64,000 nt of DNA from Candidatus Aminicenantes bacterium (GCA_963702005.1 OY969696.1:2976001-3040000), one strand, 5' to 3'. Positions 4,014 to 60,782 are shown, counted from the stretch's first letter. Translations and numbers: made by a program. The notes: generated by a model not told the origin, from the sequence alone.

Positions 4014-5807
4014 ATGGTCCCGATAAGATCCGTGAAAACGTTCGTGCTGGTGATCATCGCCGTATTGATCTTGACGACGGCCGGTGCGGCCCAGATCGTC
4101 ATCGCCCGGGGCGGCCGAGCCGTCGCCGCGGTGGTTGTTTCGGAAAACGCATCCGCGACGGAGCTTCAAGCGGCACGGGAGATCGCTTTTTTCCTCCACA
4201 TTGTGACCGGCGGCGACTTCGCGATCGTCAGCGCCGCCCCGCCGTCAAGGCCCAGGCTGCTCGTGGGAGAGGGCGCAGCCCGAATCGCCGACCCGGCCTT
4301 CGCGGCTGCGTCCCTGGCGCCGGAGGAAATCCTCATCCGTTCCGCCGGCGGCGATCTCATCCTCGCCGGCGGCAGCCCGCGCGGAACGCTCTATGCCGTC
4401 GAGACGTTCCTCGAAGACGTCGTCGGCTGTCGCTGGTGGACGTCGACGGCCAGCCATATCCCATGGAAGCCGACGCTGAATATCGGCCCCCTCTCCGTTC
4501 GCTATGCTCCGCCCCTCGAATACCGCGAACCCTTCTGGTACGTCGCCTTCGACGACATCTGGTCGGCCCGGAACAAGGCCAACGGCATTCGCTCCGGCGG
4601 AAACGACCTCTACGGCGGGAGGCATATTTACGAGGGCTTCGTCCACACCTTCTACCCGCTCATCCCCCCCGAGAAATACTTCAAGGACCACCCCGAATGG
4701 TTCGGCGAGATCAACGGGCGGCGAACGGGCGAGAACGCCCAGCTCTGCCTGACCAACGAGGAGATGAGGCGGGAGCTGGTCAGGAACCTCAAGGAGCGGC
4801 TGCGCCTCAATCCCAAAGCCACCATCGCCTCGGTCTCGCAGAACGACTGTTTCAATCCCTGCGCCTGCCCGCTCTGCCGGGCCGTGGATGAAGAGGAAGG
4901 GAGCCCGTCGGGCCTTCTCCTCCGCTTCGTCAACGCCGTCGCCGCGGACATCGAGGAGGAGTTTCCCGGCGTCGCGATCGACACCCTCGCCTATCAGTAC
5001 ACCCGTAAGCCGCCCAGGATCACCCGGCCGCGTCCCAACGTCATCGTCCGGCTCTGCAGCATCGAATGCTCCTTCAGCAGACCCCTCGACGACGAAACCA
5101 ACAAGGCATTTTACGACGACCTCAAAGGGTGGTCGGCGATCGCCGACCGGCTGTTTATCTGGGACTATACGACCGACTTCTCCCACTACATCCAACCCCA
5201 TCCCAACACCCGGGTCCTCGGCCCGAACATCAGGCTCTTCGTCCGGAACAAGGTCCGGGGGATCTTCGAGCAGGGCGCCTACCAATCCTGGGGGTCGGAG
5301 ATGGCCGAGCTTCGAGCTTGGATGCTGGCCAAGCTCCTCTGGAACCCGACGCTCGACCCCTCGAAGCTAAGAGGGGAATTCATCAAGGGGTATTACGGCC
5401 GGGCGGCCGGCCGCATTTCGGCTTACCTGGACCTCCTCGACGGGGCCGTCCAGGCCGCCGGGGATAACATGGGCTGCTACTCGCCGCCCGATGCCAAGTT
5501 CCTATCCCTGGACACTCTCGTCCGGTCCTGGGATATCCTGAAGGAAGCTGAGGGCAGCGTCCGGGGGACGATCGAATACGCCAGCCGTATCAGACGCGTT
5601 CAGATGCCCGTCGTCTATGTCGTCCTGGCCAAATGGGATGCCCTCCGCAAGGAGGCCCAAGACCGGAGACTGGCTTGGCCGTGGATGTCCGGGAGGGCGG
5701 AATGGCTCGACTGGTTCCTCAAGGCCGCCCGGGCCGAGGGCGTCACGATGATCTCCGAGTGGCAGACCTTGGACGACTGGGCAAGCAAGGGCGGCCAGGC
5801 CCGCTGA
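4014..5807 (+). CDS. DUF4838-like secreted protein with GH20/GH67-type N-terminal domain
   Basis: AGGAG RBS and signal peptide; motifs GGSPRGTLYAVETFLE..GCRWW, HPEWF, QLCLTN, SVSQND, C-x-C-xx-C, TLAYQYT, FIWDY. Confidence 0.75.
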   Translation: MVPIRSVKTFVLVIIAVLILTTAGAAQIVIARGGRAVAAVVVSENASATELQAAREIAFFLHIVTGGDFAIVSAAPPSRPRLLVGEGAARIADPAFAAASLAPEEILIRSAGGDLILAGGSPRGTLYAVETFLEDVVGCRWWTSTASHIPWKPTLNIGPLSVRYAPPLEYREPFWYVAFDDIWSARNKANGIRSGGNDLYGGRHIYEGFVHTFYPLIPPEKYFKDHPEWFGEINGRRTGENAQLCLTNEEMRRELVRNLKERLRLNPKATIASVSQNDCFNPCACPLCRAVDEEEGSPSGLLLRFVNAVAADIEEEFPGVAIDTLAYQYTRKPPRITRPRPNVIVRLCSIECSFSRPLDDETNKAFYDDLKGWSAIADRLFIWDYTTDFSHYIQPHPNTRVLGPNIRLFVRNKVRGIFEQGAYQSWGSEMAELRAWMLAKLLWNPTLDPSKLRGEFIKGYYGRAAGRISAYLDLLDGAVQAAGDNMGCYSPPDAKFLSLDTLVRSWDILKEAEGSVRGTIEYASRIRRVQMPVVYVVLAKWDALRKEAQDRRLAWPWMSGRAEWLDWFLKAARAEGVTMISEWQTLDDWASKGGQAR

Positions 5808-6980: not shown

Positions 6981-9083
6981 ATGAAAAGAGCCATGGTCTT
7001 TTTCGGTTTGGCGTTGGCCGTCCTGGCGCCGGCATCATTTCCCTTCCCTCCAGGGCCTCCGTTCGATTCCCCTCAGGCCTATTCCTCGGTGCCCGATTTT
7101 GGGAGCATCCCCCTGCATTTCATCCCGAACAGCGGACTTTATGACGCCCCGGCCTTGTTCTATGCCAGGACATCCCGCTACACTCTGTGGCTGACGAAGA
7201 ACGGCCTGGTGTTTGACGTCATGAGCCGTCGGGCTTCCGGCGCCCCGGCCGAGAGGAGCGTCTCGAGGCTTGAATTCCGCGGGACGAACCCCGATCCGGA
7301 TGTCGTGGCCGCGGATCCCTCCGAATACAGGGTCAGCTATTTCGAGGGGAACGACCCCAGCCGCTGGCTAACGGGCATCCCAACCTCCTCGACGGTCGTC
7401 TATCGCGGGGTCTACCCTCGGATCGACCTTAAGATCTACGGAGTCGAGCGCGAAGTCGAGTACGACTGGGTCGTGAAGCCGGGCGGTGACCCGGCCCTCA
7501 TCCGATTCGTCTACGAGGACGCGCAGCGGACGGACATTGAAAAGGACGGGAGCCTTGTCGTTGAGGCGGGGCTCGGCGGCTTCAAACACGGCAAGCCCGT
7601 GGCCTATCAAATAATCGAGGGCCGCCGGAGGACGGTCGAGGCCGCCTTCATGAAGGCGGGAAAAAACGAATACGGAATCAAGCTCGGTTCCTACGATAAA
7701 TCCCTTGATTTGATTATCGACCCCTATATCATGGCCTATGCCAGCTACCTGGGGGGGTCGCTGACCGAGTCGGTCGGCGGACTGGTCGTCGACGGCGAGG
7801 GCGCCATCTATATCGCCGGTTATACCTCAAGCCCCAATTTTCCCGCTCCCTCCCGATCGGCCGCGGCCAGGAGCGACGAATTTGTCACGAAGATCTCTCC
7901 GGACGGCACCTCCCTTGTCTATACGGCGTTTTTAGGGATCGGAGCGATCGATAAATATTTCGAGCTGCCCGGGCTCGCCGTCGACGCGGCCGGAGCAGCC
8001 TATCTCGCCGGCATGACGGGATCTCCGAATTTTCCGGTCAAGAACGCGTTCCAGAAAAAATACGGCGGCGGACTCCATGACGGCTATGTGGCCAAGATCG
8101 CCCCCGACGGCAAAAGCCTCGTCTATTCGAGCTACCTGGGCGGGGACGGAGCGGACACCTGCCTGTCGATCGCCGTCGACGCCAAGGGCGCCGCTTATGT
8201 CACGGGCTATGGCGGGAGTTCGAACCTTCGCATGAAAAACCCCTTCCAAGAAAAGAATTCCGGCCTTAACGACGGCTTCGTCAGCAAGGTGGCCCCGAAC
8301 GGAAAGAGCCTGGTCTATTCCACCTATATCGGCGGCACGCTCGACGAGTGGACCCAGGGCATCGCCGTGGACAGCTTCGGCGCCGCCTATATCGCAGGGC
8401 TCACGGAAAGCCATGACTTTCCCTTGAAGAATCCCTATCAGAAGGCCAATAAGGGTTCGGGCGACCTCTTCATCACGAAATTCGCACCGGACGGCCAGAG
8501 CCTCGTCTTTTCCACCTTATTGGGCGGGCCGGGCTATGACGAGGTCTTGGTCATCGCCCTGGGCGCGGGCGGAACCGTCTATATCGCGGGGCATACCGAG
8601 GGCGCCTTCCCGCTGAAGAAACCCTTCCAGCCGGCCCGCAAAGGCCCGACGGACGCGATCGTGGCCGAACTCGCGGCGGACGGCCAAAGCCTTGTCTTCT
8701 CGACCTACCTGGGCGGCAGCGGGGAGGATTGGTGCAACGGGTTGGCCGTGGACCGCGACGGGGCGGTCCTTGTGACGGGGGAGACGGGAAGCTCCAATTT
8801 TCCCAAAAAGGACGCGTGCCAGCCGATCAAAAAGGGGGACTATGACGCCTTCGTGACGAAATTCTCGCCAACCGGCCAAAGCCTCCTGTTTTCGACATTT
8901 CTCGGCGGGTCCGGCTCGGATTTCGGCTTCCGGATCGCCGCCGGCGTGGGCGGAGAGATCTATGTCGCCGGCCGCACGAACAGTCTCGGCTTCCCCCTCC
9001 TCAAGCCCTATCAAAAGAAATATGGCGGCGGCGACTACGACCTGTTCCTCTCGAAATACGACTCAATTTCGCGGACGAGATGA
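6981..9083 (+). CDS. Secreted SBBP (seven-bladed beta-propeller) repeat protein
   Basis: GGAGG RBS before ATG 6981 (the ORF track starts at 6900); repeated units LVYSTYLGG...D....IAVD..GAAYIAG.T.S.NFP. Confidence 0.85.
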   Translation: MKRAMVFFGLALAVLAPASFPFPPGPPFDSPQAYSSVPDFGSIPLHFIPNSGLYDAPALFYARTSRYTLWLTKNGLVFDVMSRRASGAPAERSVSRLEFRGTNPDPDVVAADPSEYRVSYFEGNDPSRWLTGIPTSSTVVYRGVYPRIDLKIYGVEREVEYDWVVKPGGDPALIRFVYEDAQRTDIEKDGSLVVEAGLGGFKHGKPVAYQIIEGRRRTVEAAFMKAGKNEYGIKLGSYDKSLDLIIDPYIMAYASYLGGSLTESVGGLVVDGEGAIYIAGYTSSPNFPAPSRSAAARSDEFVTKISPDGTSLVYTAFLGIGAIDKYFELPGLAVDAAGAAYLAGMTGSPNFPVKNAFQKKYGGGLHDGYVAKIAPDGKSLVYSSYLGGDGADTCLSIAVDAKGAAYVTGYGGSSNLRMKNPFQEKNSGLNDGFVSKVAPNGKSLVYSTYIGGTLDEWTQGIAVDSFGAAYIAGLTESHDFPLKNPYQKANKGSGDLFITKFAPDGQSLVFSTLLGGPGYDEVLVIALGAGGTVYIAGHTEGAFPLKKPFQPARKGPTDAIVAELAADGQSLVFSTYLGGSGEDWCNGLAVDRDGAVLVTGETGSSNFPKKDACQPIKKGDYDAFVTKFSPTGQSLLFSTFLGGSGSDFGFRIAAGVGGEIYVAGRTNSLGFPLLKPYQKKYGGGDYDLFLSKYDSISRTR

Positions 9084-41080: not shown

Positions 41081-42286
41081 ATGGACCAACTTGAATGCCT
41101 CTTTTGCAGCAAGGCTTTCGTCTACGATCCCTTCTCTCCTTTCTGCCCGGACTGCCGAGAACCGCTCCTCGTCGCCTCGCCCAAAACGCCGTGCGCCTTT
41201 CATCCCGATAAAAGCCTGTCGCTCGAACGTTTCCGGGAATTCCTCCCCCTCCCCGAGATCGACCCCGGCCTCAGCCTGGGCGAAGGCTCGACTCCCCTCC
41301 TCGCCCTCGGCCGTCTCTCGAAGCGCTTCGAACTCCCCGCCCTCTACGCCAAGAACGAGACCATGAATCCGACCCAAAGCTTTAAGGATCGGGGAACGGC
41401 CGTCGCCGTCCAAAACGCGCGGCGGCTGGGATTCAAGCGGATCGGGACGGTTTCAACCGGCAACATGGCGGCGTCGACGGCCGCCTACGGGGCGCGGGCC
41501 GGGCTGGAGACTTTCGTCCTGCTTAAGGACGGGACGCCCGAAGAAAACATCCTGATGGCCGGGGTTCATCATCCTCATCTGCTCGTCATCGAGGGCGATT
41601 ATGGGCGGCTCTTCTATGAAAGCCTGTCCCTGGGCCGCAAGCATCGGATTTTCTTCATGAACTCGATCGACCCCTTCCGCATCGAAGGCTACAAGCTTAC
41701 CGGCTTCGAGATCTTCCTTCAGCTGGGAGGCCGGGTCCCCGATTACCTCGTTGTGCCCCTCAGCTCGGGCGGGCATCTCGTCGGGCTTCTCAAATCCTTC
41801 CTGGAGCTCAAAGAACTGGGGTTCGCGGACCGGATCCCCGTCGTCGTCGGCGTTCAGGCCGAGGGTTGCGCTCCTCTGGCCCGGGCCTTTGCGGCCGGAG
41901 CGTCCCGTTTCAGCGTCTTCGAAAATCCGCGGACGATCGCCCACGCTATTTCCAATCCCCATCCCCCGGCCGGGGCTCTCGTCCTGAAGATGATGAAGGA
42001 ACGGGGAGGGCTCATCACCGCGGTTTCCGACCGGGACATGCTGGAAGCCCAGGAGCTCCTCGCCGCGGATGGCCTGTTCTGTCAGCCCGACTCGGCGACG
42101 ACGCTGGCGGCGCTCATTAAGCTCGGCCGGACCAAGGCTCTCGACCCCGACGGCGCGGCCGTCCTCGTCATCACGGGAAGCGGCCTCAAGAATCTCAAGG
42201 TCTTGGAAGCTTCGCGTCTGCCGCGGCGGAGGGTGACGCTGGCGGGATTGGCGGGCGCCTTGGCCGGAAGGACGGCCGAGGTTTAA
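41081..42286 (+). CDS. thrC: Threonine synthase
   Basis: N-terminal Cys cluster, LGEGSTPL, NPTQSFKDRG (PLP lysine), STGN, ITGSGLK. Confidence 0.88.
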   Translation: MDQLECLFCSKAFVYDPFSPFCPDCREPLLVASPKTPCAFHPDKSLSLERFREFLPLPEIDPGLSLGEGSTPLLALGRLSKRFELPALYAKNETMNPTQSFKDRGTAVAVQNARRLGFKRIGTVSTGNMAASTAAYGARAGLETFVLLKDGTPEENILMAGVHHPHLLVIEGDYGRLFYESLSLGRKHRIFFMNSIDPFRIEGYKLTGFEIFLQLGGRVPDYLVVPLSSGGHLVGLLKSFLELKELGFADRIPVVVGVQAEGCAPLARAFAAGASRFSVFENPRTIAHAISNPHPPAGALVLKMMKERGGLITAVSDRDMLEAQELLAADGLFCQPDSATTLAALIKLGRTKALDPDGAAVLVITGSGLKNLKVLEASRLPRRRVTLAGLAGALAGRTAEV

Positions 42287-44100
42287 AGGAGGGGCTCGCC
42301 GGCCTTCGAGCCGGCGTTATCGTCCGGAAGCGGCCCTTTCTGCTGGAGGATGAAGCGTACCTTCTCCTCGAACTCGCGGGCTTGGACGGGCATGAAGACG
42401 ACCAGGTCGTAGCTCAGCGTGTCAAGACGGTCCTGGTCGATTTTTTCAAACTCCTTGCGGACCAGGACGATGCTCATTTGGGACCAACGGGGATCCGTCT
42501 TGATCTTTTCGCAGAGATCATAAGCGCCCGCCTTGGGGTTGTTGAGGTCCAGGATCACGGCGTCCGGCCGGAAACGGTCCATCTCGGCCGGAGCTTCCTC
42601 CCCTTCGTTGATGATGGAGAGCTCGAAATCCTTGTGCCCGAAAGCCATCCGGACGACCTTTTGAGTCAACCCGTTCGGCGTGACGAGAAGAAGCCTGTAA
42701 CGAGAGAGGAGAGTCGGCGTGGGCTCGGCAGCGGGCTCGAAGCTGGGCTCGGGGCCGGGCTCGGGAGTCCGACTCGGCGCGGGCTCGGACGGGAGCTCGA
42801 AATCCCATCGGAACTCGGGCTGGGAAAGAGGCTCCGGCTCGGGCGCCGGCCGGGCCGGCGGGGCGGGCCGCTTGGCCTCCAGGATCTCCAGAGCCGGGAA
42901 CGCGGTTCGCAGGGCCTCGGTTTTGCCCTCCGGGCGAGCCGGCTCCGCGACAGGCCGAGCCGTCTCCCGGACGGGGCCTCCGAACCAATCCGTCATGAGG
43001 CTGCCCAAGTCGTCGGCCGCATAGTGAGACCGGCCGTCTTCGTCCAGGAACCTCTCCAAGTCCTCCCTGAGGTCTTCGACCTTCTGGTGCCTGTTCCGGG
43101 GTTCGTACTCGAGGGCCTTGAGAATGGTCCTTTTCAGCGAATCGGGGGCTTCGAAACTCCGGGGGATGACCGGGATGACCTGACCGAGAAGGATCTTGCG
43201 GAACACGGCCGGATCCAATGTCTTGGGGAATATCGGTTGTCCGGTCGCCATTTCATACAGCAAGGAGCCGATCGCGTAGATGTCGGTACGGCCGTCGACC
43301 GGCTCGCCCCGAGCCTGCTGGGGAGAGAGGTAAGAGATCTTGTTGCGGAACGACGCGGGAACGGCCTGATAAAGCCTGAGGGCCGTCCGGAACAGGCTGA
43401 AATCCGTCAGCAGGACGTCCCCCTGAGGAGTCAGCAGGACGTTCGAGGGCGCGATGTTCCCATGAATGATGCCGAGCGGGATGCCGCCGGGTCCGGGAGT
43501 CGCGAAAGCCGACTCCAAAGCCAGGCAGACCTGGGTCCCGATATAGGCGAGCGCGGGAAATGGAATCTGGCGTTTGCGGGTCTTGGCGACGTTCAGGATC
43601 GCCCCGGCGTCCGTTCCTTCGATAAAATCGAAGACGAGAAAGCCGTACTCGTTGAGCTTCCCGAAGTCGAGCATGGGAACGATGTTGGGATGGGACAGCC
43701 TGGCCAGCAGCCTGGCTTCCTCGAGGAAGACGGCCATGACGTTCTCTTTCTTGAACTGGAGGCGGATCCGTTTGAGGACGCAGGGCCGTCCGTTCTGGCC
43801 TTCGGCCCGTTTGGCTTTGAAGGTTTCGGCCAAGCCGTCGTAGCCCAGCTTTTCGACCAGGATATAGCGGCCGAATTCGGGCAGGAACTCCGGCCCGCCA
43901 TCGAGCCCGTCCGGGGATCCCGGAGGCGAGGACCGGTTTCGCCCCTTCCGTTCCAGGTCCGAGAGGATGTCGGTCAGCTTGGACTCGATCTCATCGGAGA
44001 CGCCTTTGTCCTTCTTCCGGGAGACGTGCCCATCGCGGAGGACATCCGCCTTGAGCTCGTCGATGAGCTGATTCACCTTTTTGTCGATATCTTTCATCAT
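42283..44100 (-). CDS. Hanks-type Ser/Thr pseudokinase with Pro/Glu linker and C-terminal atypical receiver domain
   Basis: Kinase subdomains LGYDGLAETFKA, VLKR, HPNIV, HGNIAPSN, TDFS, YLSPQQ, TDIYAIG; C-terminal RPDAVILDLNNP...YDLCEKIK receiver fold. Confidence 0.85.
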   Translation of the reverse strand: MMKDIDKKVNQLIDELKADVLRDGHVSRKKDKGVSDEIESKLTDILSDLERKGRNRSSPPGSPDGLDGGPEFLPEFGRYILVEKLGYDGLAETFKAKRAEGQNGRPCVLKRIRLQFKKENVMAVFLEEARLLARLSHPNIVPMLDFGKLNEYGFLVFDFIEGTDAGAILNVAKTRKRQIPFPALAYIGTQVCLALESAFATPGPGGIPLGIIHGNIAPSNVLLTPQGDVLLTDFSLFRTALRLYQAVPASFRNKISYLSPQQARGEPVDGRTDIYAIGSLLYEMATGQPIFPKTLDPAVFRKILLGQVIPVIPRSFEAPDSLKRTILKALEYEPRNRHQKVEDLREDLERFLDEDGRSHYAADDLGSLMTDWFGGPVRETARPVAEPARPEGKTEALRTAFPALEILEAKRPAPPARPAPEPEPLSQPEFRWDFELPSEPAPSRTPEPGPEPSFEPAAEPTPTLLSRYRLLLVTPNGLTQKVVRMAFGHKDFELSIINEGEEAPAEMDRFRPDAVILDLNNPKAGAYDLCEKIKTDPRWSQMSIVLVRKEFEKIDQDRLDTLSYDLVVFMPVQAREFEEKVRFILQQKGPLPDDNAGSKAGEPLL

Positions 44101-44672
44101 GAGCCGCGCTTATCCATTTCGCGCCGGATCGCCTCCCCCACGATCCGCGTCAATTCGGGATAAAGACGCTCGAGGACGCGGGCGCTCAGCGACTCCAAGC
44201 CCTCCTCGGGCGGTCCTGAGACGGCGGCGGGCATGTCCGCCGGAGACGCGCTGGGGAGCGAAGCCGGCGGCCCCGCCTGGGGAACGGGCTGGCCTTCGGC
44301 CGGAATGGCGGGCGGGGGAGGAACCTCCGGCTCGATGCGGATGATATCGGATGCCGCCGACCGGGCCGCTCCGGCGCCGGGGGCGAGGACCATCAGGCAG
44401 AAATCCTGGGCGTTGGCCACGAAGAAGCTCAAGGTGATCCGGAGCTTCCGGTCCTCGGTCCGGAGCGAAACCTCCTTGATCTTCTCCAGCCCCAAGGTTT
44501 CTTGGACGCTGTGGATCGTCTGCTGGAGCGGGAAGGCGAAGGCGGACAGGACCTCGGGATCGTACATTTCCCCCCGGGCGTCGACGACCAGGCCGTCTCT
44601 GTCGACGACGACGGCCTGATGGAGCTTCCCGTCCCGAATCATGTCTTCGACCGTCTTGGAGATGAATTTCAC
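44097..44672 (-). CDS. Roadblock/LC7 domain protein with Pro-rich linker and helical C-terminal tail
   Basis: AVVVDRDGLVV roadblock hairpin; tail VLERLYPELTRIVGEAIRREMDK; 4-bp overlaps on both sides. Confidence 0.75.
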   Translation of the reverse strand: MKFISKTVEDMIRDGKLHQAVVVDRDGLVVDARGEMYDPEVLSAFAFPLQQTIHSVQETLGLEKIKEVSLRTEDRKLRITLSFFVANAQDFCLMVLAPGAGAARSAASDIIRIEPEVPPPPAIPAEGQPVPQAGPPASLPSASPADMPAAVSGPPEEGLESLSARVLERLYPELTRIVGEAIRREMDKRGS

Positions 44673-45247
44673 AGCCTCGCCTCCTGTTCCAGACGCTCCA
44701 GCAAACGCCGGACCATGACGATGAAGGACTCGCGGAGGTTGATCCCCTTGAGGGCGCTAACCTCGAAGGCCGGGTAGCCGTTGAGCCCGAGCAGCTTGCC
44801 CAGTTCGTCGGCCGGGTAAGTGTCCTCGAGGTCGATTTTATTGTAGAGGACGATGATCTCGGACTGGCGGAGCTTTTCGATGTTATCGAGGTAACGGTTG
44901 AATTCGACGACGAATTCCCGGTTGTGCTCGAGCTCCTTCTTCTGACAGTCGACGACGAAGAAGATGCCGTCGGCGTCCTCGAACAGCATCCGGCGCGTGC
45001 TGAGATAGTAGTCCTGGCCGGTGGCCGTGAACAGGCGGACGACGATGTAGGTGCTGATCTGGATCGGGGTGAAATCGAAAAGGAGGGTCTGGCCGAACGA
45101 GGTTTCGATGGACTTGATCTCGCTCGTCATCTTCATGTCCTTGGGGATGACGTTCTGGTACAGCCACCTCAGGCATGTCGTCTTCCCGGCCAAGGCCGTG
45201 CCGAAGAAGAGGATCTTGAAGTAGATCTTGCTGCCGTAGGTCTTCAC
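44669..45247 (-). CDS. MglA-family small Ras-like GTPase (192 aa)
   Basis: GTG start overlapping the upstream stop (GTGA); KILFFGTALAGKTT, TLLFDF, FTATGQ, DGIFFVVD, NKID, SAL. Confidence 0.9.
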   Translation of the reverse strand: MKTYGSKIYFKILFFGTALAGKTTCLRWLYQNVIPKDMKMTSEIKSIETSFGQTLLFDFTPIQISTYIVVRLFTATGQDYYLSTRRMLFEDADGIFFVVDCQKKELEHNREFVVEFNRYLDNIEKLRQSEIIVLYNKIDLEDTYPADELGKLLGLNGYPAFEVSALKGINLRESFIVMVRRLLERLEQEARL

Positions 45248-45702
45248 GAGCCTTCCTTCTCGAACCTGGACAGGATGTCGGCGATGCTCCGGCTGTCGGG
45301 AAGCCGGAACTTCATCTCCTTGACCATCTCCTCGCGGATTTCCATGGTGTCCTGCATGATCTTGGTGATGGCGTCGATGGCCCGCTTGGCCTCGAGCCGG
45401 ATCATCCCGATGTAGGCGTTCTTGCCGGCGATGATCGTCAGGAGACCCCGCGGCATCCGGTTCTGGCAAAGCTTGAGGTCCCCGTACTCGACGATGATGC
45501 TGTCGAGTTTTTGCATGAGCTCCGTTCCGACCTGGGCGTAGGAGTTGTAGCAGGCGGCCAATAGGGCCCCCAGGTCCTCCGATTTCATGTCGAACTGGCC
45601 GGCGACCTCTATCGGAATGCCGTCGATGTCGATCAGGATGACCCCGACGACCTCGGGCACGCGCTTCATGATCCCGTCGATGATTTCTTTGATGTTGGCC
45701 AT
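45244..45702 (-). CDS. Roadblock/LC7 (MglB/MglC-like) protein with C-terminal extension
   Basis: VVGVILIDIDGIPI, LGALLA, IIVEYG, GMIRLEAKRA. Confidence 0.9.
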   Translation of the reverse strand: MANIKEIIDGIMKRVPEVVGVILIDIDGIPIEVAGQFDMKSEDLGALLAACYNSYAQVGTELMQKLDSIIVEYGDLKLCQNRMPRGLLTIIAGKNAYIGMIRLEAKRAIDAITKIMQDTMEIREEMVKEMKFRLPDSRSIADILSRFEKEGS

Positions 45703-45720
45703 GATTCCTCTTTCCGCGCG

Positions 45721-46800
45721 TCAGGGGGCCGGAGCTTTCCCGGCGGTCTTCAACAACTGATCCAGCGATTCCTCGACTTTGAAGCGGACCATGAGCGGGT
45801 TGGGTCCGGCTTCCAGGACAAATCCAAAGACGATGGCGTGAACGCAGACAAGGATATTGACGTGTCTCGTGTTGATTTCGATGTACTTGAGGGGGCCTGA
45901 CCGTAGCGCCCCGCGCGGGATGCTCCCGACCGACTGGACGACGCGGAGGAAGTTTTGGGAGGGGAAGTTGATGTCCCGGTACTTCGCATAGCCGACCAGG
46001 TCCCCCCCGTCGAACAGGACAGCCAGGTAGAGCTCCTTGACGCTCGACATCTCCTTGAGAAACTCGACGATCTCGGGGACCGTTTCCCGGATATAGGGGG
46101 ATAGATTCATCCGCCGTTCCTTGGCCCCGATGGCCAGGATCTTGGCCAGGGTCCGCTCCCGGACGTTGAGCATCTCGGAGACATAGGACTGGGTCAGCGA
46201 GCCGGACGATTCGATCTCGTTGAGCATGGCCTGGAAGGCGAGGTGGACCTCGCTCTGCTTGAGCTGGACCTTGAACTCCTTGACCCCTTCGCTGTTGTCC
46301 CTCATCTCCTGGATGAGCCGCTGCTCAATGAAGAGATCCTCGGGAAGAGGGTCCAGGAAATACAGGGTCCCATCGGCGAAGGAAAAGACGTCCTTGACGC
46401 GGAGGGAGTCGTCCTCCCACTCCTCCCGGGTGTGGCTGGTCGTCGCCATCCAGCCGAGGGGAAGGACGGACAGGACGCTTTTCAGGATGGCGGGCTCGGC
46501 CGCGAAGTAGATGAGCTGAATCGGCGGAGCGCCCAACTCCTCTTCCGCGAAGGACAGCTCGAAAGCCTCCCGCTGGGCTTCCGGCTCCTTGGTCTCGATC
46601 AACTTGGCCCCCTTGATGTAGCGGGCGTCCTTGGGGATAGCGCCGCAGAGAACGAACGTCCGGTACTGGGGGATATTATACCTCCACAGCGATAAAAGGC
46701 TGTTGGCGGATTCGACGTTCGGGGCCTGGATGACGATCCGATTCCGATACCAGATGGCGGCCAGCAGGGCGGCTTCCCAATTCTCCTGGAGCTTGGTCAT
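45721..46800 (-). CDS. Hypothetical 359-aa protein: alpha/beta N-terminal domain, HTH-like segment, C-terminal roadblock-like domain
   Basis: ATGA-coupled ORF within the operon; C-terminal LYLAVLFDGGDLV...LKYIEINT...FGFVL...PLMVRFKVEESLDQL follows the roadblock pattern. Domain calls made by eye. Confidence 0.65.
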   Translation of the reverse strand: MTKLQENWEAALLAAIWYRNRIVIQAPNVESANSLLSLWRYNIPQYRTFVLCGAIPKDARYIKGAKLIETKEPEAQREAFELSFAEEELGAPPIQLIYFAAEPAILKSVLSVLPLGWMATTSHTREEWEDDSLRVKDVFSFADGTLYFLDPLPEDLFIEQRLIQEMRDNSEGVKEFKVQLKQSEVHLAFQAMLNEIESSGSLTQSYVSEMLNVRERTLAKILAIGAKERRMNLSPYIRETVPEIVEFLKEMSSVKELYLAVLFDGGDLVGYAKYRDINFPSQNFLRVVQSVGSIPRGALRSGPLKYIEINTRHVNILVCVHAIVFGFVLEAGPNPLMVRFKVEESLDQLLKTAGKAPAP

Positions 46801-47201
46801 GACCTTTCCTTCCCCGGCGCCGGGAGCATGAGGGCGTCGAAGATCTCCTCGAGGGCGGGCGTGACTTCCTTGATCAGGATCTTGGCCAGGCCGACGTTGA
46901 GCTTCTTCCGTCCCAGGAGAAGGACGTGAAAACCGCGGTCGGGATGCTTATGAATGAGGAGGATGCTTTCCTGCCATTCGACCTGCATCTGATTGAGGTC
47001 TGCGGCGCCGGCGCTGATCGCGACGGCATTGGCGGCATCGATGATATCGGCGATGGAGACCAGGACTTCGCTGGGCGGCGATCCTTCGAACTTCGAGAAG
47101 AGGAGCGTTCCGTCCGGGCCAAATAGGGCGAATCCCTCCTTGTCGGCCAGGTAAGAGAGACGCTCCAGGACGAAAGCCAGCTTGGGGCTTTGGATGATCA
47201 T
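46797..47201 (-). CDS. Roadblock/LC7-like protein
   Basis: GFALFGPDGTLL, LNQMQVEW, VLLLG, NVGLAKILIKEV. Confidence 0.8.
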   Translation of the reverse strand: MIIQSPKLAFVLERLSYLADKEGFALFGPDGTLLFSKFEGSPPSEVLVSIADIIDAANAVAISAGAADLNQMQVEWQESILLIHKHPDRGFHVLLLGRKKLNVGLAKILIKEVTPALEEIFDALMLPAPGKERS

Positions 47202-47684
47202 GGTTTGGTCCCGGCCGGTCCGGGAAGGCTCTTATGTCCCGTAATAATCACGATATCCGCCTTGAGCTCCGAGACTTCCATATCCTCCAGCCCGATCGTC
47301 CGGGAGGCGTCGAGAACGGTCCGGCAGCCTCTATCCCGGGCGAAGCCTAAAAGCGCCGGCGCATCGTTGACCGCTCCCGCTGCATTTGAAGCGTGATTGA
47401 GAACGGCCACCCGGGGAGTCCGCTTCTCGACGGCTTCCCGCCAGAAGATCCTCACGGACCCTGCCTTCGACGTTGCAGGGAACGATCTCCAGCTGAACGC
47501 CGTTCCCCGCGAACCGGTCAAGGGGCCTGAGGACCGAATTATGCTCCAAAGCCGTAGTCAAGACAAGGCCCTTCTCCGCCGCCACCTCCTCTGCCATGCC
47601 GGGGGGCTTGGGAAAAGACGTGGCGGCGTTATTCAGGTAGACGGGAGCGCGCTCGGGAACGGACTGAATCCCGTCCTCGCCCAA
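47198..47684 (-). pseudogene. Class V aminotransferase (cysteine desulfurase family) remnant
   Basis: YLNNAATSFPKPP joined almost directly to TTALEHNSVLRPL (internal deletion), then a frameshift, NHASN, LDAS, TGHKSLPGPAGT and a premature end. Confidence 0.85.
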
Positions 47685-47852
47685 CGCACGGCCTCCCTAA
47701 ACAAATAAAAAATAAATTTAAGTGCTCAGATCGTATCGTATTTATCCGCTCTGACGACGACGAATTCGCCGTAGGGATCACCCTTTTCGATGCCCTTGAC
47801 CTGCTTGGCCCGGAACGTGACAGCGGCCATTGTCCTTCTCATTTTGGGGGGA

Positions 47853-48224
47853 TCATCCCGTGAGGGCGTCCTCGAACTTGTCGACTATTTCAGGCAGGAT
47901 GACGTTGAGCAGGAGTCCGGTCGCGATCTTCTTGGTATCGACGAAAAGCCCCCACTGGTACCCGTCCATGGGGATGATCAGAAACATCTTCGAGTCCGCC
48001 AAATCAACGATGTAGTACCTGCCCAGGAGCGGGAAATTGCTCCCCTTCAAGGACTTCGTCAAAAAATTCGTGACCTGGTTGAAGAGGGCGCAGGCTTTGG
48101 GCTGGGAGTTGATTCCGTAAATGCTCTGCCCGTCCGCGGATGAATAGATATCCGTGGAGAGAATGCCGTCTCCCAGATCCTCCTTGAGCTTGTCGACCGC
48201 TTCTTTCATTTTCTTAATGTTCAT
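47853..48224 (-). CDS. Roadblock-like protein (123 aa)
   Basis: From ATG 48224: LKEDLGDGILSTDIYSSADGQSI...ACALFNQV...YYIVDL...GLLLNVILP, consistent with the roadblock alpha-beta2-alpha-beta3-alpha order. Confidence 0.7.
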   Translation of the reverse strand: MNIKKMKEAVDKLKEDLGDGILSTDIYSSADGQSIYGINSQPKACALFNQVTNFLTKSLKGSNFPLLGRYYIVDLADSKMFLIIPMDGYQWGLFVDTKKIATGLLLNVILPEIVDKFEDALTG

Positions 48225-55957: not shown

Positions 55958-56093
55958 TTGGGGTCGGACCGACACGGAGCCTGTCGCTGGCCGCACCGGC
56001 CCTCCTTCAGTGACATCTCGCCTAATCCCAATCGCGGAGTTGACAATCGCATTCCATCACGTTAATAATTGAGAGCATGGGCAGGAGGATCAT

Positions 56094-58103
56094 ATGAAAA
56101 AGTTTTGTGTTCCGGTCCTATGGGGAATTTTGTCTCTGACCCTGTTCGCTCACGAAAACTCTTCCCCCTCGCCCGGCTTCAATCCCGGCCTGCTCGCACA
56201 GGATAAGGCCGCCTCCTGGTCCTCGCTCGGACCCTATGGCGGGGACATCCGGGCCATGGCCGTCAGCTCCCAAAACCCTTCTCAGATTTGGGCCTTATCC
56301 GTTACCAATCCGTCGCTCATCGGGAAAACGACCGACGGGGGCGCGACCTGGAATATCGCCTCTGTCAGCGCCGAATGTTTCTACGACCTCAAAATCCATC
56401 CGGTGACCGGCGTCCTCTACGGACTTAGCGATACGGCACTGTACAAATCAAGCAACGGGGGCACGACCTGGACTAAGTTCAAACTGGGAACCAACCAGCA
56501 CGGGTTTTGGGGGCGGCTGGCCCTCCATCCCTCAAATCCCGACATTGTCTATATCGGCGGCTATTATCAGAACGCAAGCTCCAAGAATAACATGGCCTTT
56601 TTCAAGTCCGCGGACGGCGGCACAACTTGGAGCGTTAAGACCTTTGAAGATGCCTCCAGCGACGGTCTGCTCAACGGCATCGCGGTCTCCCGCTCAAGCC
56701 CGAATGTCATTTACGCATTGGGCTACTTCACTGATTCGCAGGGCCGATTTAATGTCCGAATCTACAAGAGCGTCAACGATGGAGTCAGCTGGATCGGCCA
56801 ATCCAACCCCGAAGACCGGTTGTTCCGCGACATCGTCGTCCATCCCACCGATCCCAATAAAGCCTATCTTGTGACGGAATATCATGTCTGGCGGACCTCC
56901 AATGGAGGGAATACCTGGACTCCAAACAACGGTTCCGCCGGCGGCTATGTCCTTGCTCTCGATCCCTCCTACCCCGATACGCTCTACGCGGGGTATTACA
57001 ACACGGTCTACCGAAGCCTGAACGGCGGAGCGGACTGGGAGCAGTCAACTTCGGGAGTCTACGGCGATGTCTTTGCCATCACGGTCCTGACCGATAAGGT
57101 CCTCTGCGGGTCGTTGGCGGGGATCTTCGCGACCCAGTCCGGAGCGGGAACCGGCCTCACTTCCTGGCCGACCTGGACGGATTCGTCCAACGGACTGAAA
57201 GCCGCTACGTTGAAATGCTTCGCGGTCGCGCCCTCCTCCCCGAATACCCTCTATGCCGCAGTTTATGCCCGGGGGGTCTTTATCAGCAAGGATTCCGGAT
57301 CAACCTGGGCTATGCTGCCCTACTCCTCCGCGTCCAGTTTTTTCAGCCGGCTTGAGGTCCATCCGTCTCATGCCAACATCGTTTACGGCCTCTTCTACGT
57401 CTCGGGAGAGGACTCCCTTTTTAAAACCGCGGATGGAGGCAAGACCTGGACGAAGCTCGTGTCCGCCGAATGCGAAGATTTCGTGCTGAGCCAAAAGAAT
57501 CCCGGCCGGATCTTCATTGCCGGGACGAGCTCGGTCGGCTCCCAATATTACATGGCGCTCCACCGGTCCACGGACGGAGGGGCGAAATGGACGCACATCA
57601 AGATCTCCTCGACGGCCGGGAGCTGCGGGTATGCGATCGCTCTCGACCCCAAGAACGACAATGTCGTCTATGTGGGAGGAACGTCCGCAGGCGGAGGCGC
57701 GGCCCTCTTCAAGTCTTCCGACATGGGAAAGAAATGGACGAACATCACGGGGGATATCCAGGGCAAAATCGTGGACATCGCGGTCGATCCGACGACCTCC
57801 GACCGGATCTATGTCGCGAGCATGGGCGGCCTTTTTAAGAGCGAAAACGGGGGGAGCACCTGGAAGGCCGTCCGGAACGATTCCATCTGCTGCCTCTTTG
57901 TTCATCCGACCTCGCCCAAGATCGTCTATGCGGTTCAAAACTCGGGCAAGGGGATCTTCGTGAGCAAGAACTACGGAGCGACCTGGAGTTCCTTCAACCA
58001 GGGACTCATCTACAAGATTGTTGTAGCCCTGGGTCTCGACAAGAAAACCGACACGCTTTACGCCGCGACCTACGGCGCCTCGGTCTGGAAACGAAAAATA
58101 TAA
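56094..58103 (+). CDS. Secreted BNR/Asp-box repeat beta-propeller protein (VPS10/GH74-like)
   Basis: Many S.DGG.TW repeats; WSSLGPYGG; ATYGASVW. Confidence 0.88.
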   Translation: MKKFCVPVLWGILSLTLFAHENSSPSPGFNPGLLAQDKAASWSSLGPYGGDIRAMAVSSQNPSQIWALSVTNPSLIGKTTDGGATWNIASVSAECFYDLKIHPVTGVLYGLSDTALYKSSNGGTTWTKFKLGTNQHGFWGRLALHPSNPDIVYIGGYYQNASSKNNMAFFKSADGGTTWSVKTFEDASSDGLLNGIAVSRSSPNVIYALGYFTDSQGRFNVRIYKSVNDGVSWIGQSNPEDRLFRDIVVHPTDPNKAYLVTEYHVWRTSNGGNTWTPNNGSAGGYVLALDPSYPDTLYAGYYNTVYRSLNGGADWEQSTSGVYGDVFAITVLTDKVLCGSLAGIFATQSGAGTGLTSWPTWTDSSNGLKAATLKCFAVAPSSPNTLYAAVYARGVFISKDSGSTWAMLPYSSASSFFSRLEVHPSHANIVYGLFYVSGEDSLFKTADGGKTWTKLVSAECEDFVLSQKNPGRIFIAGTSSVGSQYYMALHRSTDGGAKWTHIKISSTAGSCGYAIALDPKNDNVVYVGGTSAGGGAALFKSSDMGKKWTNITGDIQGKIVDIAVDPTTSDRIYVASMGGLFKSENGGSTWKAVRNDSICCLFVHPTSPKIVYAVQNSGKGIFVSKNYGATWSSFNQGLIYKIVVALGLDKKTDTLYAATYGASVWKRKI

Positions 58104-58250
58104 GCGTCCGCTTTCCTTGAATAGAAATGCGGATTTGATAATTTTTTGATTTGCCCAAAAAGGCAAGGGCTTTGCCTGTCAACGGATCGCTCCTGCGGGC
58201 CGTATTCTGTTTATGGCCGTATTTCATCGCTCTTTCGCAAGGGAATTCCC

Positions 58251-59912
58251 ATGAAAAAGATAATCATCCCCATGATGTTTTGTCTCGCTCTCTCCAATAG
58301 ACTCTCCGGACAAATCCCAGACCTGGTCAAGAATGAAGGCATCACGAGTCCAATGCACCGGGCCCATATCGGCGAAGTCACCTTCATGTCCAATCCCATC
58401 CCGGTTCAGGACTATCGGGAATCGGATTTTCTGAAGATTTTTGAATTGAAGGAAAATTGCGACTTGAATATCCGGACGTTCATGGGAAACTCCCTGACAA
58501 ACTATCTGCATCAGTTGGCGCCCGAAATGAGCGCGGAGGAACTGAATAAAATCGGCAACTATCAATTTTCGTTCACTGTCGACGGGGCCCTGGTTTACAC
58601 CGAAAACCTCAATCCGGGCGCGGGAGGCCTCGAAGGCAAGAATACGCAAACCGTTTTCCGCGTCCCTTTGATCAGTACCACGGAGGAAGATTCCTGGGGC
58701 CGTTTTCTCTGGATGCGGTTCATGATTAGAGGGGGCGAGGATGTCTTGACGGAGGGAAAGCACGCCTTGAAAATCGAGATCCGGCCGTATATTAAGAATC
58801 CGGACCTGAAGACGGGGGAACTGATCGCCGCGGGGCACATTATCCTGGATGTCGTTAAGCCCAAAGTCGACGAGGCGAAGATCGGGCCGCAGCCCATCCA
58901 ACCCGGCAGTGGATGGCCGATCTCGAACGACCTCTACGACAGGGAAAAGATCCGGGACCTCAACCGGAAGATCGCCCAGAAGGATTTCAAGGACATCACG
59001 AGCCTCGTCGTTATCAAAGGCGGGAAGCTCTTGATCGAGGAATATTTCAACGGGGCGGATAGAACGACGCTCCACAATACGCGTTCCGTGGGAAAAACTT
59101 TCACCTCGGCGCTCATGGGGACCGCCATTCGGGACGGATTCATCAAGGACGAAACCCGGACCCTGGGGGAATTTTACGACCTCAAGTCCTTCGCCAACTT
59201 CTCCCCGAAGAAAAACGCCGTCACGCTTAAGAATTTATTGACGATGAGCTCGGCCTTCACCGGGTCGGACCTGGACGAAAACTCGCCGGGAAACGAAGAA
59301 AAGATGTACCCGACATCGAATTGGGTGAAATTCGCGCTGGACCTGCCGATGGACGAAGCCAAGGAAAACGGGAAGCAATGGGATTATTTCACGGCCGGCG
59401 TCGTCCTGCTAGGCGATATCCTCGACAAATCCGTCCCCGGCGGGTTGGAGCGATACGCCGACAAGCAGCTATTCAAACCTTTGGAAATCACAAGATACGA
59501 GTGGCAATATACGCCCCAAAAGGTCGTGAATACTGCGGGCGGCCTGCAGATGACGTCCCTGGACTACGCCAAATTCGGGCAGCTCTATAAAAACGGAGGC
59601 CTCTGGAACGGCGCGCCCGTTCTGCCGAAACATTGGGTCGAGAAGTCATTTCAAAAATATCTGAAGATCCCCAATAATGAAAACGGCTTCTACGGGCTTT
59701 TGTTCTGGAACATGACCTACAAAGTGAACAGCCATCCGTGCGAGACGTTCTATTGCACGGGAAACGGCGGCAACAAGATCTTCATTTTCAACGACCAGCC
59801 CCTGGTTATCGTCATCACGGCCACCGCCTATGGCAAACCCTACATGCATCCCCAGGTCGATAAGATGATGGAAAGGTACATCCTGCCCGCCGTCTTGAGG
59901 TTGAAAACGTAG
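58251..59912 (+). CDS. Serine hydrolase (beta-lactamase-related) with N-terminal extension
   Basis: RSVGKT (SxxK), LLTMSS, WDYFT, GNGGNKIFI; signal peptide from ATG 58251. Confidence 0.88.
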   Translation: MKKIIIPMMFCLALSNRLSGQIPDLVKNEGITSPMHRAHIGEVTFMSNPIPVQDYRESDFLKIFELKENCDLNIRTFMGNSLTNYLHQLAPEMSAEELNKIGNYQFSFTVDGALVYTENLNPGAGGLEGKNTQTVFRVPLISTTEEDSWGRFLWMRFMIRGGEDVLTEGKHALKIEIRPYIKNPDLKTGELIAAGHIILDVVKPKVDEAKIGPQPIQPGSGWPISNDLYDREKIRDLNRKIAQKDFKDITSLVVIKGGKLLIEEYFNGADRTTLHNTRSVGKTFTSALMGTAIRDGFIKDETRTLGEFYDLKSFANFSPKKNAVTLKNLLTMSSAFTGSDLDENSPGNEEKMYPTSNWVKFALDLPMDEAKENGKQWDYFTAGVVLLGDILDKSVPGGLERYADKQLFKPLEITRYEWQYTPQKVVNTAGGLQMTSLDYAKFGQLYKNGGLWNGAPVLPKHWVEKSFQKYLKIPNNENGFYGLLFWNMTYKVNSHPCETFYCTGNGGNKIFIFNDQPLVIVITATAYGKPYMHPQVDKMMERYILPAVLRLKT

Positions 59913-59924
59913 GAGTGCCGTTCG

Positions 59925-60782
59925 CTATTTCGCGTCGGGTACATGCTGCAGGAAATGCAGAACGTCGTCGTTGAACAACGCCGGGTCCTGGAGGAAGGAG
60001 AAGTGGCTCACCTCCGGCTGGAGCAGCAGGCCGGCTCCCGGGATGGTCGCGGCCATGAACTCGGTATTCTCGCGCTTGATCGCCTCGTCATGATCGCCGT
60101 CGACGATCCAGGTCGGCGTCTTGATGCCGGCGAGCCGGGCCTTGGTGAAGCTGGGCTGGGTCGCCCACATCTTGCTGAGCTGGTTGAGGAAGTCGTTATA
60201 CTTGGTCGGGGTCGCCGACAGCATCTCGTACTCCTTTTCCGCCCGGAGGAAAAAGGCGTTGAAGACGTCGCTCTTGCTGATGTCGGTCATGCCGCTCGGG
60301 TCCGAATTAGCGGCGAAGGCGAAGAGCTTGGTGATGCGTTCGGGATGGCTGATGGCGATATCGAGGCCGAGGATGGCGCCGTCGCTCCAGCCGACGATGG
60401 CCGCCTTCTTGATCTTCAGAAAGTCCAGCAGCGCGACCACGTCCGAGGCCATCAAGTCATAGCCATAAGGCTGGTCGTTGCGCGTGCTGCGGCCATGACC
60501 GGGGCTGTCCATGACGATGACCCGGCAGTGTTTGTCCAGGGCGGGCACCAGGCTGCCCCAGTAGTTGGAATTGGCGAGCCCCCCATGGAGCAGGATCACC
60601 GGCTGGCCCTTGCCGAACTCAGCGTACCAGATCTTAACACCATTGACCGGCGCATAGCCGCTGACCGAGGCCTTGGGCAGGGTCGGGGTGGGCGGCAGGA
60701 CCATCCATTGGTCCTCGGCGCGGGCGATAGCGACCGCTCCCATGAAGGCTAGAACACAGATGACGGGACCACGATGGCGCAT
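59925..60782 (-). CDS. Alpha/beta fold hydrolase, secreted
   Basis: LLHGG, GHGRS, GWSDG nucleophile elbow, catalytic D and H near the C-terminus. Confidence 0.9.
   Translation of the reverse strand: MRHRGPVICVLAFMGAVAIARAEDQWMVLPPTPTLPKASVSGYAPVNGVKIWYAEFGKGQPVILLHGGLANSNYWGSLVPALDKHCRVIVMDSPGHGRSTRNDQPYGYDLMASDVVALLDFLKIKKAAIVGWSDGAILGLDIAISHPERITKLFAFAANSDPSGMTDISKSDVFNAFFLRAEKEYEMLSATPTKYNDFLNQLSKMWATQPSFTKARLAGIKTPTWIVDGDHDEAIKRENTEFMAATIPGAGLLLQPEVSHFSFLQDPALFNDDVLHFLQHVPDAK

Follow-up and report, generated by a model that had tools for sequence, protein, structure and literature searches.

A roadblock-rich gene cluster with an MglA-family GTPase and a distinctive roadblock-fused protein in Candidatus Aminicenantes

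Gene content and conservation of the cluster

A cluster of seven open reading frames (ORFs), named G1 to G7, was analysed in a 64,000-nt stretch of DNA from Candidatus Aminicenantes bacterium (GCA_963702005.1 OY969696.1:2976001-3040000). This whole stretch is called the window, and positions are counted from its first letter. The ORFs occupy 42283-48224, all on the minus strand, and are predicted to encode an MglA-family small GTPase (G5), several roadblock proteins, a two-part protein ending in a roadblock domain (G3) and a fusion of a kinase-like domain with a receiver (G7). The features are as follows.

47853-48224, minus strand: G1, 123 amino acids; possibly roadblock-like, an accessory gene outside the conserved core
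47198-47684, minus strand: aminotransferase remnant, a class-V aminotransferase pseudogene between G1 and G2
46797-47201, minus strand: G2, 134 amino acids; very probably a divergent roadblock protein, with a 4-bp overlap with the start of G3
45721-46800, minus strand: G3, 359 amino acids; N-terminal alpha/beta and helical part, C-terminal predicted roadblock
46096-46800, minus strand: G3 residues 1-235; predicted three-layer alpha/beta domain (about residues 1-170) followed by a long helix and a winged-helix-like bundle of three helices (about 171-235)
45730-46086, minus strand: G3 residues 239-357; predicted roadblock domain
45244-45702, minus strand: G4, 152 amino acids; MglB/LAMTOR3-like roadblock by profile with a conserved C-terminal extension, overlapping the start of the GTPase gene by 4 bp
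44669-45247, minus strand: G5, 192 amino acids, GTG start; MglA-family small GTPase by sequence
44097-44672, minus strand: G6, 191 amino acids, GTG start; roadblock by profile, Pro/Ala-rich linker and C-terminal amphipathic helix
42283-44100, minus strand: G7, 605 amino acids; degenerate kinase-like domain (about 43084-43860), Pro-rich linker and atypical receiver (about 42334-42696)

At four of the six junctions the genes overlap by 4 bp (G2/G3, G4/G5, G5/G6 and G6/G7); 18 bp separate G3 from G4, and 651 bp separate G1 from G2. A preliminary description of the locus had listed seven intact, co-oriented genes mostly joined by such overlaps. Its coordinates and strand were confirmed, as were the overlaps at these four junctions, but it had not mentioned the pseudogene that separates G1 from G2. 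G1 to G7 are real genes, since the G+C content at third codon positions (GC3) is 0.78-0.90 across all seven, as is usual in the host, and other genomes hold conserved orthologues. The lack of an obvious transmembrane segment, already remarked on, was borne out by a hydropathy scan of the seven proteins: no convincing segment was found, and the highest 19-residue value (2.02) fell in predicted beta strands of the G3 roadblock. A scan for promoters and terminators was uninformative inside the operon, with three promoter-like sites against 1.0 expected and three terminator-like sites against 7.9 expected. No mobile-element genes were found within the cluster.

A search for the same neighbourhood in other genomes, which the preliminary description had proposed as a check, was successful. 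G3, G4 and G5 lie side by side, in unchanged order, in all 10 distinct loci: the window, six loci from other genomes of the order (6/6) and three further public loci (3/3). In each of these G3 is immediately preceded by a gene of about 120-135 amino acids, read as a roadblock, and G5 is immediately followed by a roadblock gene. The set G2-G3-G4-G5-G6 with the receiver protein is conserved in these 10 loci, all in Aminicenantes-labelled genomes, at protein identities from 35 to 95%. A search with G5 gave matches in 40 of the 41 genomes of the order, but orthologues at 55-91% identity in only six of the other 40, and the remaining genomes hold only an MglA paralogue at 31-36% identity. All six genomes with a high-identity G5 orthologue have G3 adjoining. 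The cluster is a conserved unit and not a chance row of ORFs. In the literature no description of this gene set was found, and none joining Aminicenantes with 'small GTPase', in a search that left aside the MglA-neighbourhood tables of PMC4316618, a possible home of related sets.

The GTPase and its roadblock neighbours

Judged by its sequence, G5 belongs to the MglA family of GTPases and has its nucleotide-binding motifs intact, in line with its earlier assignment as MglA-type. Among PDB sequences it matched MglA of Thermus thermophilus (3t12_A, 1.6e-20) and of Myxococcus xanthus (2e-19), and the best non-MglA chain was a Thorarchaeota Rab at 1.5e-6. In Pfam the matches were Arf (1.2e-11), Ras (2.4e-9) and Gtr1_RagA, the last at 1e-7 and weaker than Arf, Ras and MglA. 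The motifs are GTALAGKT in the P-loop, TATGQ at the GTPase motif called G3 (with Thr for the Ras-type Asp), NKID and SAL. GTALAGKT, TATGQ and NKID are invariant in 10 of 10 orthologues, and so is the stretch S50-F51-G52-Q53-T54, in which a Gln stands where group-1 MglA has its arginine finger. Mean column identity across the orthologues is 71%.

Group 1 MglA proteins, as defined by Wuichet and Sogaard-Andersen (PMC4316618), have an intrinsic Arg beside the Thr of GTPase motif G2, together with TVPGQ, and groups 2-5 have Thr-Thr and GTPGQ. G5 falls outside group 1, with Gln-Thr (GQT) and TATGQ rather than Arg-Thr and TVPGQ. A second MglA-like gene in the same genome (G000:C1:1507498-1508358, that is, 4499-5359 of locus L027, plus strand) is of the group-1 type, with ERT and TVPGQ. 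It encodes 286 amino acids including a Lys/Glu-rich C-terminal tail of about 90 residues, and has no adjoining roadblock gene. MglB reportedly acts by positioning MglA's own arginine, a result ascribed to Miertzschke et al. 2011. Having no arginine of its own, G5 should need an element in trans or a different mechanism, and its GTP hydrolysis is probably partner-dependent.

The G4 product and the N-terminus of G6 are roadblock domains by profile comparison. G4, although bacterial, clears the gathering threshold of the LAMTOR3/MP1 family (MAPKK1_Int 8.6e-8; 32.5 bits, cut-off 25) and scores higher there than on the general Robl_LC7 profile (8e-5, nearly at its cut-off). Its family profile matched roadblocks among the PDB sequences at 0.005-0.04 and MglB at 0.035. 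At a mean column identity of 73% over 10 orthologues, G4 is more strongly conserved than any other protein of the module, and its last 35 residues (KFRxPDxxxIxDILSxF) hardly vary between these orthologues. The N-terminus of G6 matched Robl_LC7 at 3.3e-6 (27.2 bits, cut-off 23), the roadblock covering residues 1 to about 112 (44337-44672). In the alignment of 10 orthologues this part is conserved and the linker variable, mean column identity being 38%; the C-terminal helix is found in five of the 10 (the window, L025, L026, L032 and L033).

G2 has no Pfam or NCBIfam match of its own and is very probably a divergent roadblock protein, as its family profile (alignment A3) suggests. Among PDB sequences this profile matched the roadblock 7f8m_A over its full length (E 0.0047, residues 7-121 on 7-120), followed by 9jue_D (0.021) and cvnB5 (0.65). 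The gene at the G2 position matched Robl_LC7 in L033 (3.7e-5; 23.8 bits, cut-off 23) and in L032 (0.0077), and MAPKK1_Int in L031 (2.7e-4). Two close homologues bear the source name 'Roadblock/LC7/MglB family', and an hhalign comparison of G2 with G4 was insignificant. A profile combining the roadblock genes of these loci reached solved roadblocks at 2e-21. Searched with Robl_LC7, the whole genome yielded no sites besides G4, G6 and a weak one at C1:3165449.

Locus L031 contains two extra upstream roadblock genes (4121-4537 and 5046-5444), the latter matching Robl_LC7 at 1.3e-20. A 160-amino-acid ORF of the same locus (4582-5064, plus strand), for which a family search gave none, shares a stretch with the N-terminal extension of the G2-position ORF (5492-5626), reading FSLFGY...LRQAGKD... 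versus FSLLGLG...LRETGKK...

G3, its distant version and the variable ends of the cluster

G3, which has no Pfam or NCBIfam match, is the founder of a rare, previously undescribed protein family and the most distinctive part of the cluster. According to its model the C-terminus is a roadblock domain: it has the fold alpha-beta-beta-alpha-beta-beta-beta-alpha and superposes on solved roadblocks. The family profile gave weak C-terminal roadblock matches among PDB sequences (best 0.071) and none for the N-terminus. The C-terminal roadblock had been recognised before in this ORF, but the distinctive N-terminal 235 residues had been overlooked. The invariant Arg, Lys and Glu residues of the family all lie in this N-terminal part and not in the roadblock; mean column identity across the orthologues is 58%.

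Residues 1-235 (G3-N) were modelled alone from 11 sequences, with a predicted local distance difference test score (pLDDT) of 88.4 and a predicted template modelling score (pTM) of 0.86. The model is a five- to six-stranded alpha/beta sandwich followed by a long helix and a three-helix bundle. Its structural neighbours are a tie between the FlaI/GspE ATPases and DENN domains (FLCN, DENND1A/B, DENND10). Five are C-terminal domains of secretion or pilus ATPases (GspE 10.9, FlaI 9.7, PilB 9.1, HP0525 8.6 and CpaF 8.0) and four are DENN entries (DENND10 9.3, folliculin 9.1 and 8.8, DENND1A 8.7). Foldseek with the same model against the PDB returned nothing at E<=0.001, and the ESM Atlas gave no usable match for residues 1-235. 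A receiver-like domain was dropped as a candidate, response regulators appearing at a Foldseek probability of 0.20-0.23 only.

The Walker A motif GxxxxGK[ST] is absent from G3-N. The loop after the strand at residues 22-25, which reads APNVESAN in the window, is unconserved and holds no conserved Gly or Lys in 38 family members, and for this reason an active ATPase of the secretion/pilus class (FlaI, GspE, PilB) was ruled out. In the account of Zhang et al. (PMC3521125), core DENN is a minimal P-loop-like sandwich that lacks residues for nucleotide binding, and an all-helical d-DENN comes after it. This account matches the G3-N model and explains the joint appearance of ATPases and DENN domains among the neighbours. 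G3 starts directly at the alpha/beta domain, so that the N-terminal longin (u-DENN) is absent, and a roadblock stands at the C-terminus instead. G3-N is best described, from its model, as a Walker-less P-loop-like fold that is DENN-like in outline.

Relatives of G3 number 18 when 5.8 billion proteins are clustered at 90%. Among 1.84 billion proteins clustered at 50% there are 41 representatives, 37 of them 336-382 amino acids long. Across 401 genomes of the phylum the family profile found a full-length protein in two (the window's genome and G010) and the roadblock only in a third. Named records of the family are labelled Candidatus Aminicenantes or Aminicenantia, except for two 'uncultured Eubacteriales' and one labelled as an archaeon. 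The last concerns the pair L030/L031, in which a contig labelled Candidatus Methanofastidiosia archaeon gave match statistics identical, for all operon proteins, to those of a Candidatus Aminicenantia contig from the same series. The archaeal label is doubtful, and the same sequence was probably binned twice.

A metagenome scan with the G3 sub-alignment A7 revealed one distant locus, L037. It comprises, in order, a roadblock gene (Robl_LC7 6e-8), a G3-like gene joined to it by a 4-bp overlap, a DnaA-type AAA+ ATPase gene and a gene for a receiver-PAS-histidine kinase, with no small GTPase within 13 kb. The ATPase (7127-8476, plus strand; Bac_DnaA 2.8e-37) ends in a fused roadblock, and over its last 107 residues it shares 53% identity with the roadblock of the G3-like protein encoded beside it. 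We know of no earlier description of a DnaA-type ATPase fused to a roadblock. From the sequences at this locus it follows that the roadblock and G3 pair would be the old core of the G3 family. The closely similar roadblock on the ATPase points to pairing through roadblock domains, and the likely partner of the G3 roadblock is a second roadblock that recruits a nucleoside triphosphatase (NTPase). The Rag GTPases are held together by their roadblock domains, an assembly that such pairing would resemble by analogy.

The downstream gene differs more between loci. G7 matched Pkinase in Pfam at 7e-23 and Response_reg at 1.6e-4 (22.3 bits, below the cut-off of 30.2). In alignment A9 the kinase motifs read HGN, DFS/DFC and GYDGLAE in the window and in L026, as against HRD, DFG and GSGGMGE in L031-L033. 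G7 keeps the beta-3 Lys (VLK), but the HRD aspartate, DFG and the Gly-rich loop are degenerate. In the receiver of the window and L026, TP replaces the acidic pair and M the conserved Lys, and the window keeps the phospho-acceptor Asp (ILDLN); in L022, L023, L032 and L033 the Lys is kept, with DD or D at the acidic pair (AD-N in L033), and the relatives retain the Asp as well. As its motifs indicate, G7 is a pseudokinase with a degenerate receiver and not an active Hanks-type Ser/Thr kinase, so that the pseudokinase-receiver fusion proposed earlier holds for this genus. What stays constant in the downstream protein is the C-terminal atypical receiver, present in six of six complete versions aligned, L031 ending at a contig edge. 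Upstream of it stand a kinase (L032, the window, L026), a receiver and a kinase (L033, L031) or, in a second family (L022, L023), a canonical receiver alone. The sequence comparison indicates that the kinase and receiver catalytic residues were lost recently, within the window's genus.

The upstream edge is variable as well. G1 has no Pfam, NCBIfam or PDB sequence match, and Pfam roadblock profiles matched none of 21 family members. Compared by hhalign with a broad roadblock profile (A14), its family (A4) gave an E of 0.0047 at a probability of only 7.5%, with 79 columns in register; comparisons with G4, G2 and the L033 gene at 4907-5272 gave nothing useful. Among the neighbours of G1 by ESM Atlas features, at 0.95, is a cluster that was automatically named 'putative Roadblock/LAMTOR2', which is a lead only. 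G1 is possibly roadblock-like. It adjoins G2 only within the window's genus (the window and L026), and its family was found in none of the five other module-bearing genomes, one of which is a single contig. G1 is an accessory gene outside the conserved core, and its inclusion in the module was not borne out. The preliminary description had counted up to five roadblocks. Those of G4, the G6 N-terminus and the G3 C-terminus were confirmed by the comparisons above, that of G2 very probably so, and that of G1, with neither a Pfam nor a PDB match, was not.

The remnant between G1 and G2 matched Pfam Aminotran_5 at 2.7e-12, over profile positions 138-208 of 371 only. It is cysteine-desulfurase-like and, read in three frames, proves to be split across two; it has an internal deletion and the C-terminal half is gone. 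Its stop codon overlaps the start of G2. In the congener L026, G1 and G2 are about 50 bp apart and the remnant is absent; L025 keeps a piece of 20 amino acids. The genes flanking the cluster encode a convergent pyridoxal phosphate (PLP)-dependent enzyme, an ATP-binding cassette (ABC) ATPase and a family-less protein of 551 amino acids, and nothing suggests that they belong to it. Elsewhere in the window, at 56001-60000, the G+C content falls to 0.57 and 0.525, compared with about 0.60-0.65 in the rest.

A possible GTPase switch, its alternatives and known systems

The cluster is reasonably likely to be a lineage-restricted GTPase switch derived from MglA/MglB, with one GTPase, four or five roadblocks, a new regulator and a receiver-bearing adaptor. 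Such a switch would broadly resemble complexes that regulate GTPases in archaea and eukaryotes. Any single assignment within this general picture deserves much less confidence than the picture itself. Gene order and 4-bp overlaps suggest that G4 and G6 would form an MglB-like roadblock dimer or heterodimer as the platform for G5. G2 and the C-terminal roadblock of G3, whose genes keep their overlapping adjacency even in L037, would form a second dimer. This dimer would present G3-N to G5, with G3-N acting as an exchange factor, as a trans-acting element of a GTPase-activating protein (GAP) or as a reader of the nucleotide state, which makes the G2-G3 pair a candidate regulator of G5. Through the receiver protein the switch would be coupled to phosphorylation signalling, in the relatives by way of an active-looking kinase and a receiver, or of two receivers; in this genus the protein may serve as a scaffold only.

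Several points weigh against this proposal. The roadblock pairing partners are deduced from gene order only, and no physical interaction was shown or predicted; a complex prediction of G3 with G5 (alignments A11 and A12) scored 0.00, which counts neither for nor against binding and gives no verdict on the hetero-oligomeric scaffold proposed in the preliminary description. L037, which has no small GTPase within 13 kb, retains the invariant arginines of G3, and these cannot for that reason be specific to GTPase catalysis. Some of the operon roadblocks may serve the canonical-looking second MglA, which has no roadblock gene beside it, because they are the only ones detectable genome-wide. The fold of G1 is unproven, and G1 is missing from most versions of the cluster. 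With regard to G3, DENN-family profiles (DENN, d-DENN and Folliculin_C) matched none of 38 members at E<=10, so that no profile links G3 to DENN, and nothing in the genome was matched by PF02141 or PF16692.

An ordinary MglA/MglB polarity module, in which the extra roadblocks are MglB paralogues (like MglC), the receiver protein is RomR-like and the extension of G3 has no special role, would be a simpler explanation. The cluster does resemble the MglA/MglB systems of Myxococcus xanthus and Thermus thermophilus in the Thr-type GTPase motif G3, the adjoining roadblock genes, the presence of more than one roadblock paralogue and the receiver protein. In Myxococcus the kinase gene masK adjoins mglBA and its product binds MglA, which would be a precedent for the kinase link. 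The differences from MglA/MglB with MglC and RomR/RomX are a Gln for the arginine finger, TATGQ for TVPGQ, four or five roadblock domains where those systems have one or two, the added G3 with its P-loop-like/DENN-like domain, and a receiver fused to a kinase or pseudokinase. The simpler explanation is judged unlikely, since G5 lacks both the group-1 Arg finger and TVPGQ, and a separate MglA of the group-1 type is present in the same genome and found order-wide (40/41 genomes). The invariant residues of G3 lie in the N-terminal domain rather than the roadblock, which makes that domain the constrained part, and the G3 family is rare, being full-length in two of 401 genomes of the phylum.

A more specific version of the proposed switch would make G3 a bacterial DENN-type regulator, its core DENN and d-DENN carried on a roadblock and not on a longin, which together with G2 forms a platform loading or switching G5. 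On the strength of the model this is tentative and rather doubtful. The closest described analogue in composition, which the preliminary description had not mentioned, is an Asgard operon. In it, by the account of Liu et al. (10.1101/2020.10.19.343400), a roadblock of LAMTOR1 type stands with a Rab-like GTPase and a DENN protein as a proposed GEF-like (guanine nucleotide exchange factor-like) module. Both sets unite roadblock(s) and a small GTPase with a further protein, a DENN protein in the Asgard operon and one that is DENN-like in outline here. Compared by that description only, the present cluster differs in being bacterial, in its MglA-like GTPase, in the extra roadblocks and in the kinase/receiver protein. 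G3-N also differs from the Asgard DENN protein described there in having no DENN sequence match and in being fused to a C-terminal roadblock. That the cluster is, by homology or convergence, the bacterial counterpart of this operon and of FLCN/Ragulator, with G3-N a true DENN domain and G2-G3 the GEF or GAP of G5, seems quite improbable. In comparison with Rag-Ragulator-FLCN/FNIP, G5 consists of the GTPase domain only (192 amino acids), lacks a C-terminal roadblock and is MglA-like by sequence, a LAMTOR1-type membrane anchor is missing, and G3 has its domains in the reverse order to longin-DENN proteins. Identity with Rag-Ragulator itself was rejected on the missing roadblock domain of G5 and its Gtr1_RagA match of only 1e-7.

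Like the actinobacterial conservon (CvnA-D), the cluster joins in one operon a GTPase of the MglA family, a roadblock, a kinase-type protein and a protein whose function is unknown. Neither a membrane histidine kinase nor DUF742 (CvnC) was matched when the seven proteins were scanned with Pfam and NCBIfam. The cluster further differs in having more roadblocks, and G5 keeps the NKxD motif that group-2 MglA lacks (PMC4316618). Identity with the conservon was rejected because histidine kinase and DUF742 are lacking and NKxD is canonical. As the preliminary description had held, the composition matches neither the conservon, without a histidine kinase or DUF742, nor the Myxococcus module, with G5 lacking the group-1 arginine finger.

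Group 3 MglA systems of beta- and gamma-proteobacteria, as described by Wuichet and Sogaard-Andersen 2014, combine an MglA homologue and one or two MglB with a conserved unknown protein that has an alpha/beta N-terminus and a winged-helix C-terminus. G3, with its predicted alpha/beta domain followed by a winged-helix-like bundle, is similar by that description only. Unlike G5, the Group 3 GTPases deviate in the GTPase motif G4 and carry GTPGQ, and unlike G3 their unknown protein is receiver-like and without a roadblock, as far as the same account goes.

It is highly improbable that unrelated signalling genes have come together here by chance, or that they form a defence or mobile island: PADLOC defence-kinase models (PD-T4-6, mad6) match G7 and the upstream edge with G1 and the pseudogene is fluid, but the PADLOC matches are confined to the generic kinase domain, none of the six other operon proteins was matched, the gene order is kept in 10 loci at 35-95% identity, and the 4-bp overlaps, the host-typical GC3 and the lack of mobile-element genes in the cluster argue likewise. 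A defence system was rejected as an explanation on the same ground, its matches being to the generic kinase domain of G7 only.

A 2026 paper (PMC13392464) notes DENND10-like folds in Bacteria and Archaea that were not pursued there, so that, on that report, a bacterial DENN-like fold as such is not unheard of. The pairing of MglA with roadblocks is itself known; new here is the G3 family at the centre of a system of this type.

The operon is a compact, soluble bacterial set in which an MglA-derived GTPase without arginine finger is combined with several roadblocks and a nucleotide-free P-loop-like/roadblock protein. Such a set of small proteins is tractable for questions of how roadblocks choose their dimer partners and how an MglA-type GTPase is driven in trans. 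The parallel loss of kinase and receiver residues in one genus offers a clean natural case of a signalling enzyme becoming a scaffold. Small GTPases on roadblock/longin platforms under DENN regulators are central to eukaryotic membrane traffic and nutrient sensing, and the prokaryotic roots of such platforms are known mainly from MglA/MglB and from Asgard archaea. If the DENN link were true, it would raise the wider question of the origin of this regulator fold, and the design of DENN plus platform would predate, or lie outside, the archaeal-eukaryotic line. L037, with its DnaA-type ATPase carrying a paralogous roadblock, would then represent the same platform recruiting different NTPases.

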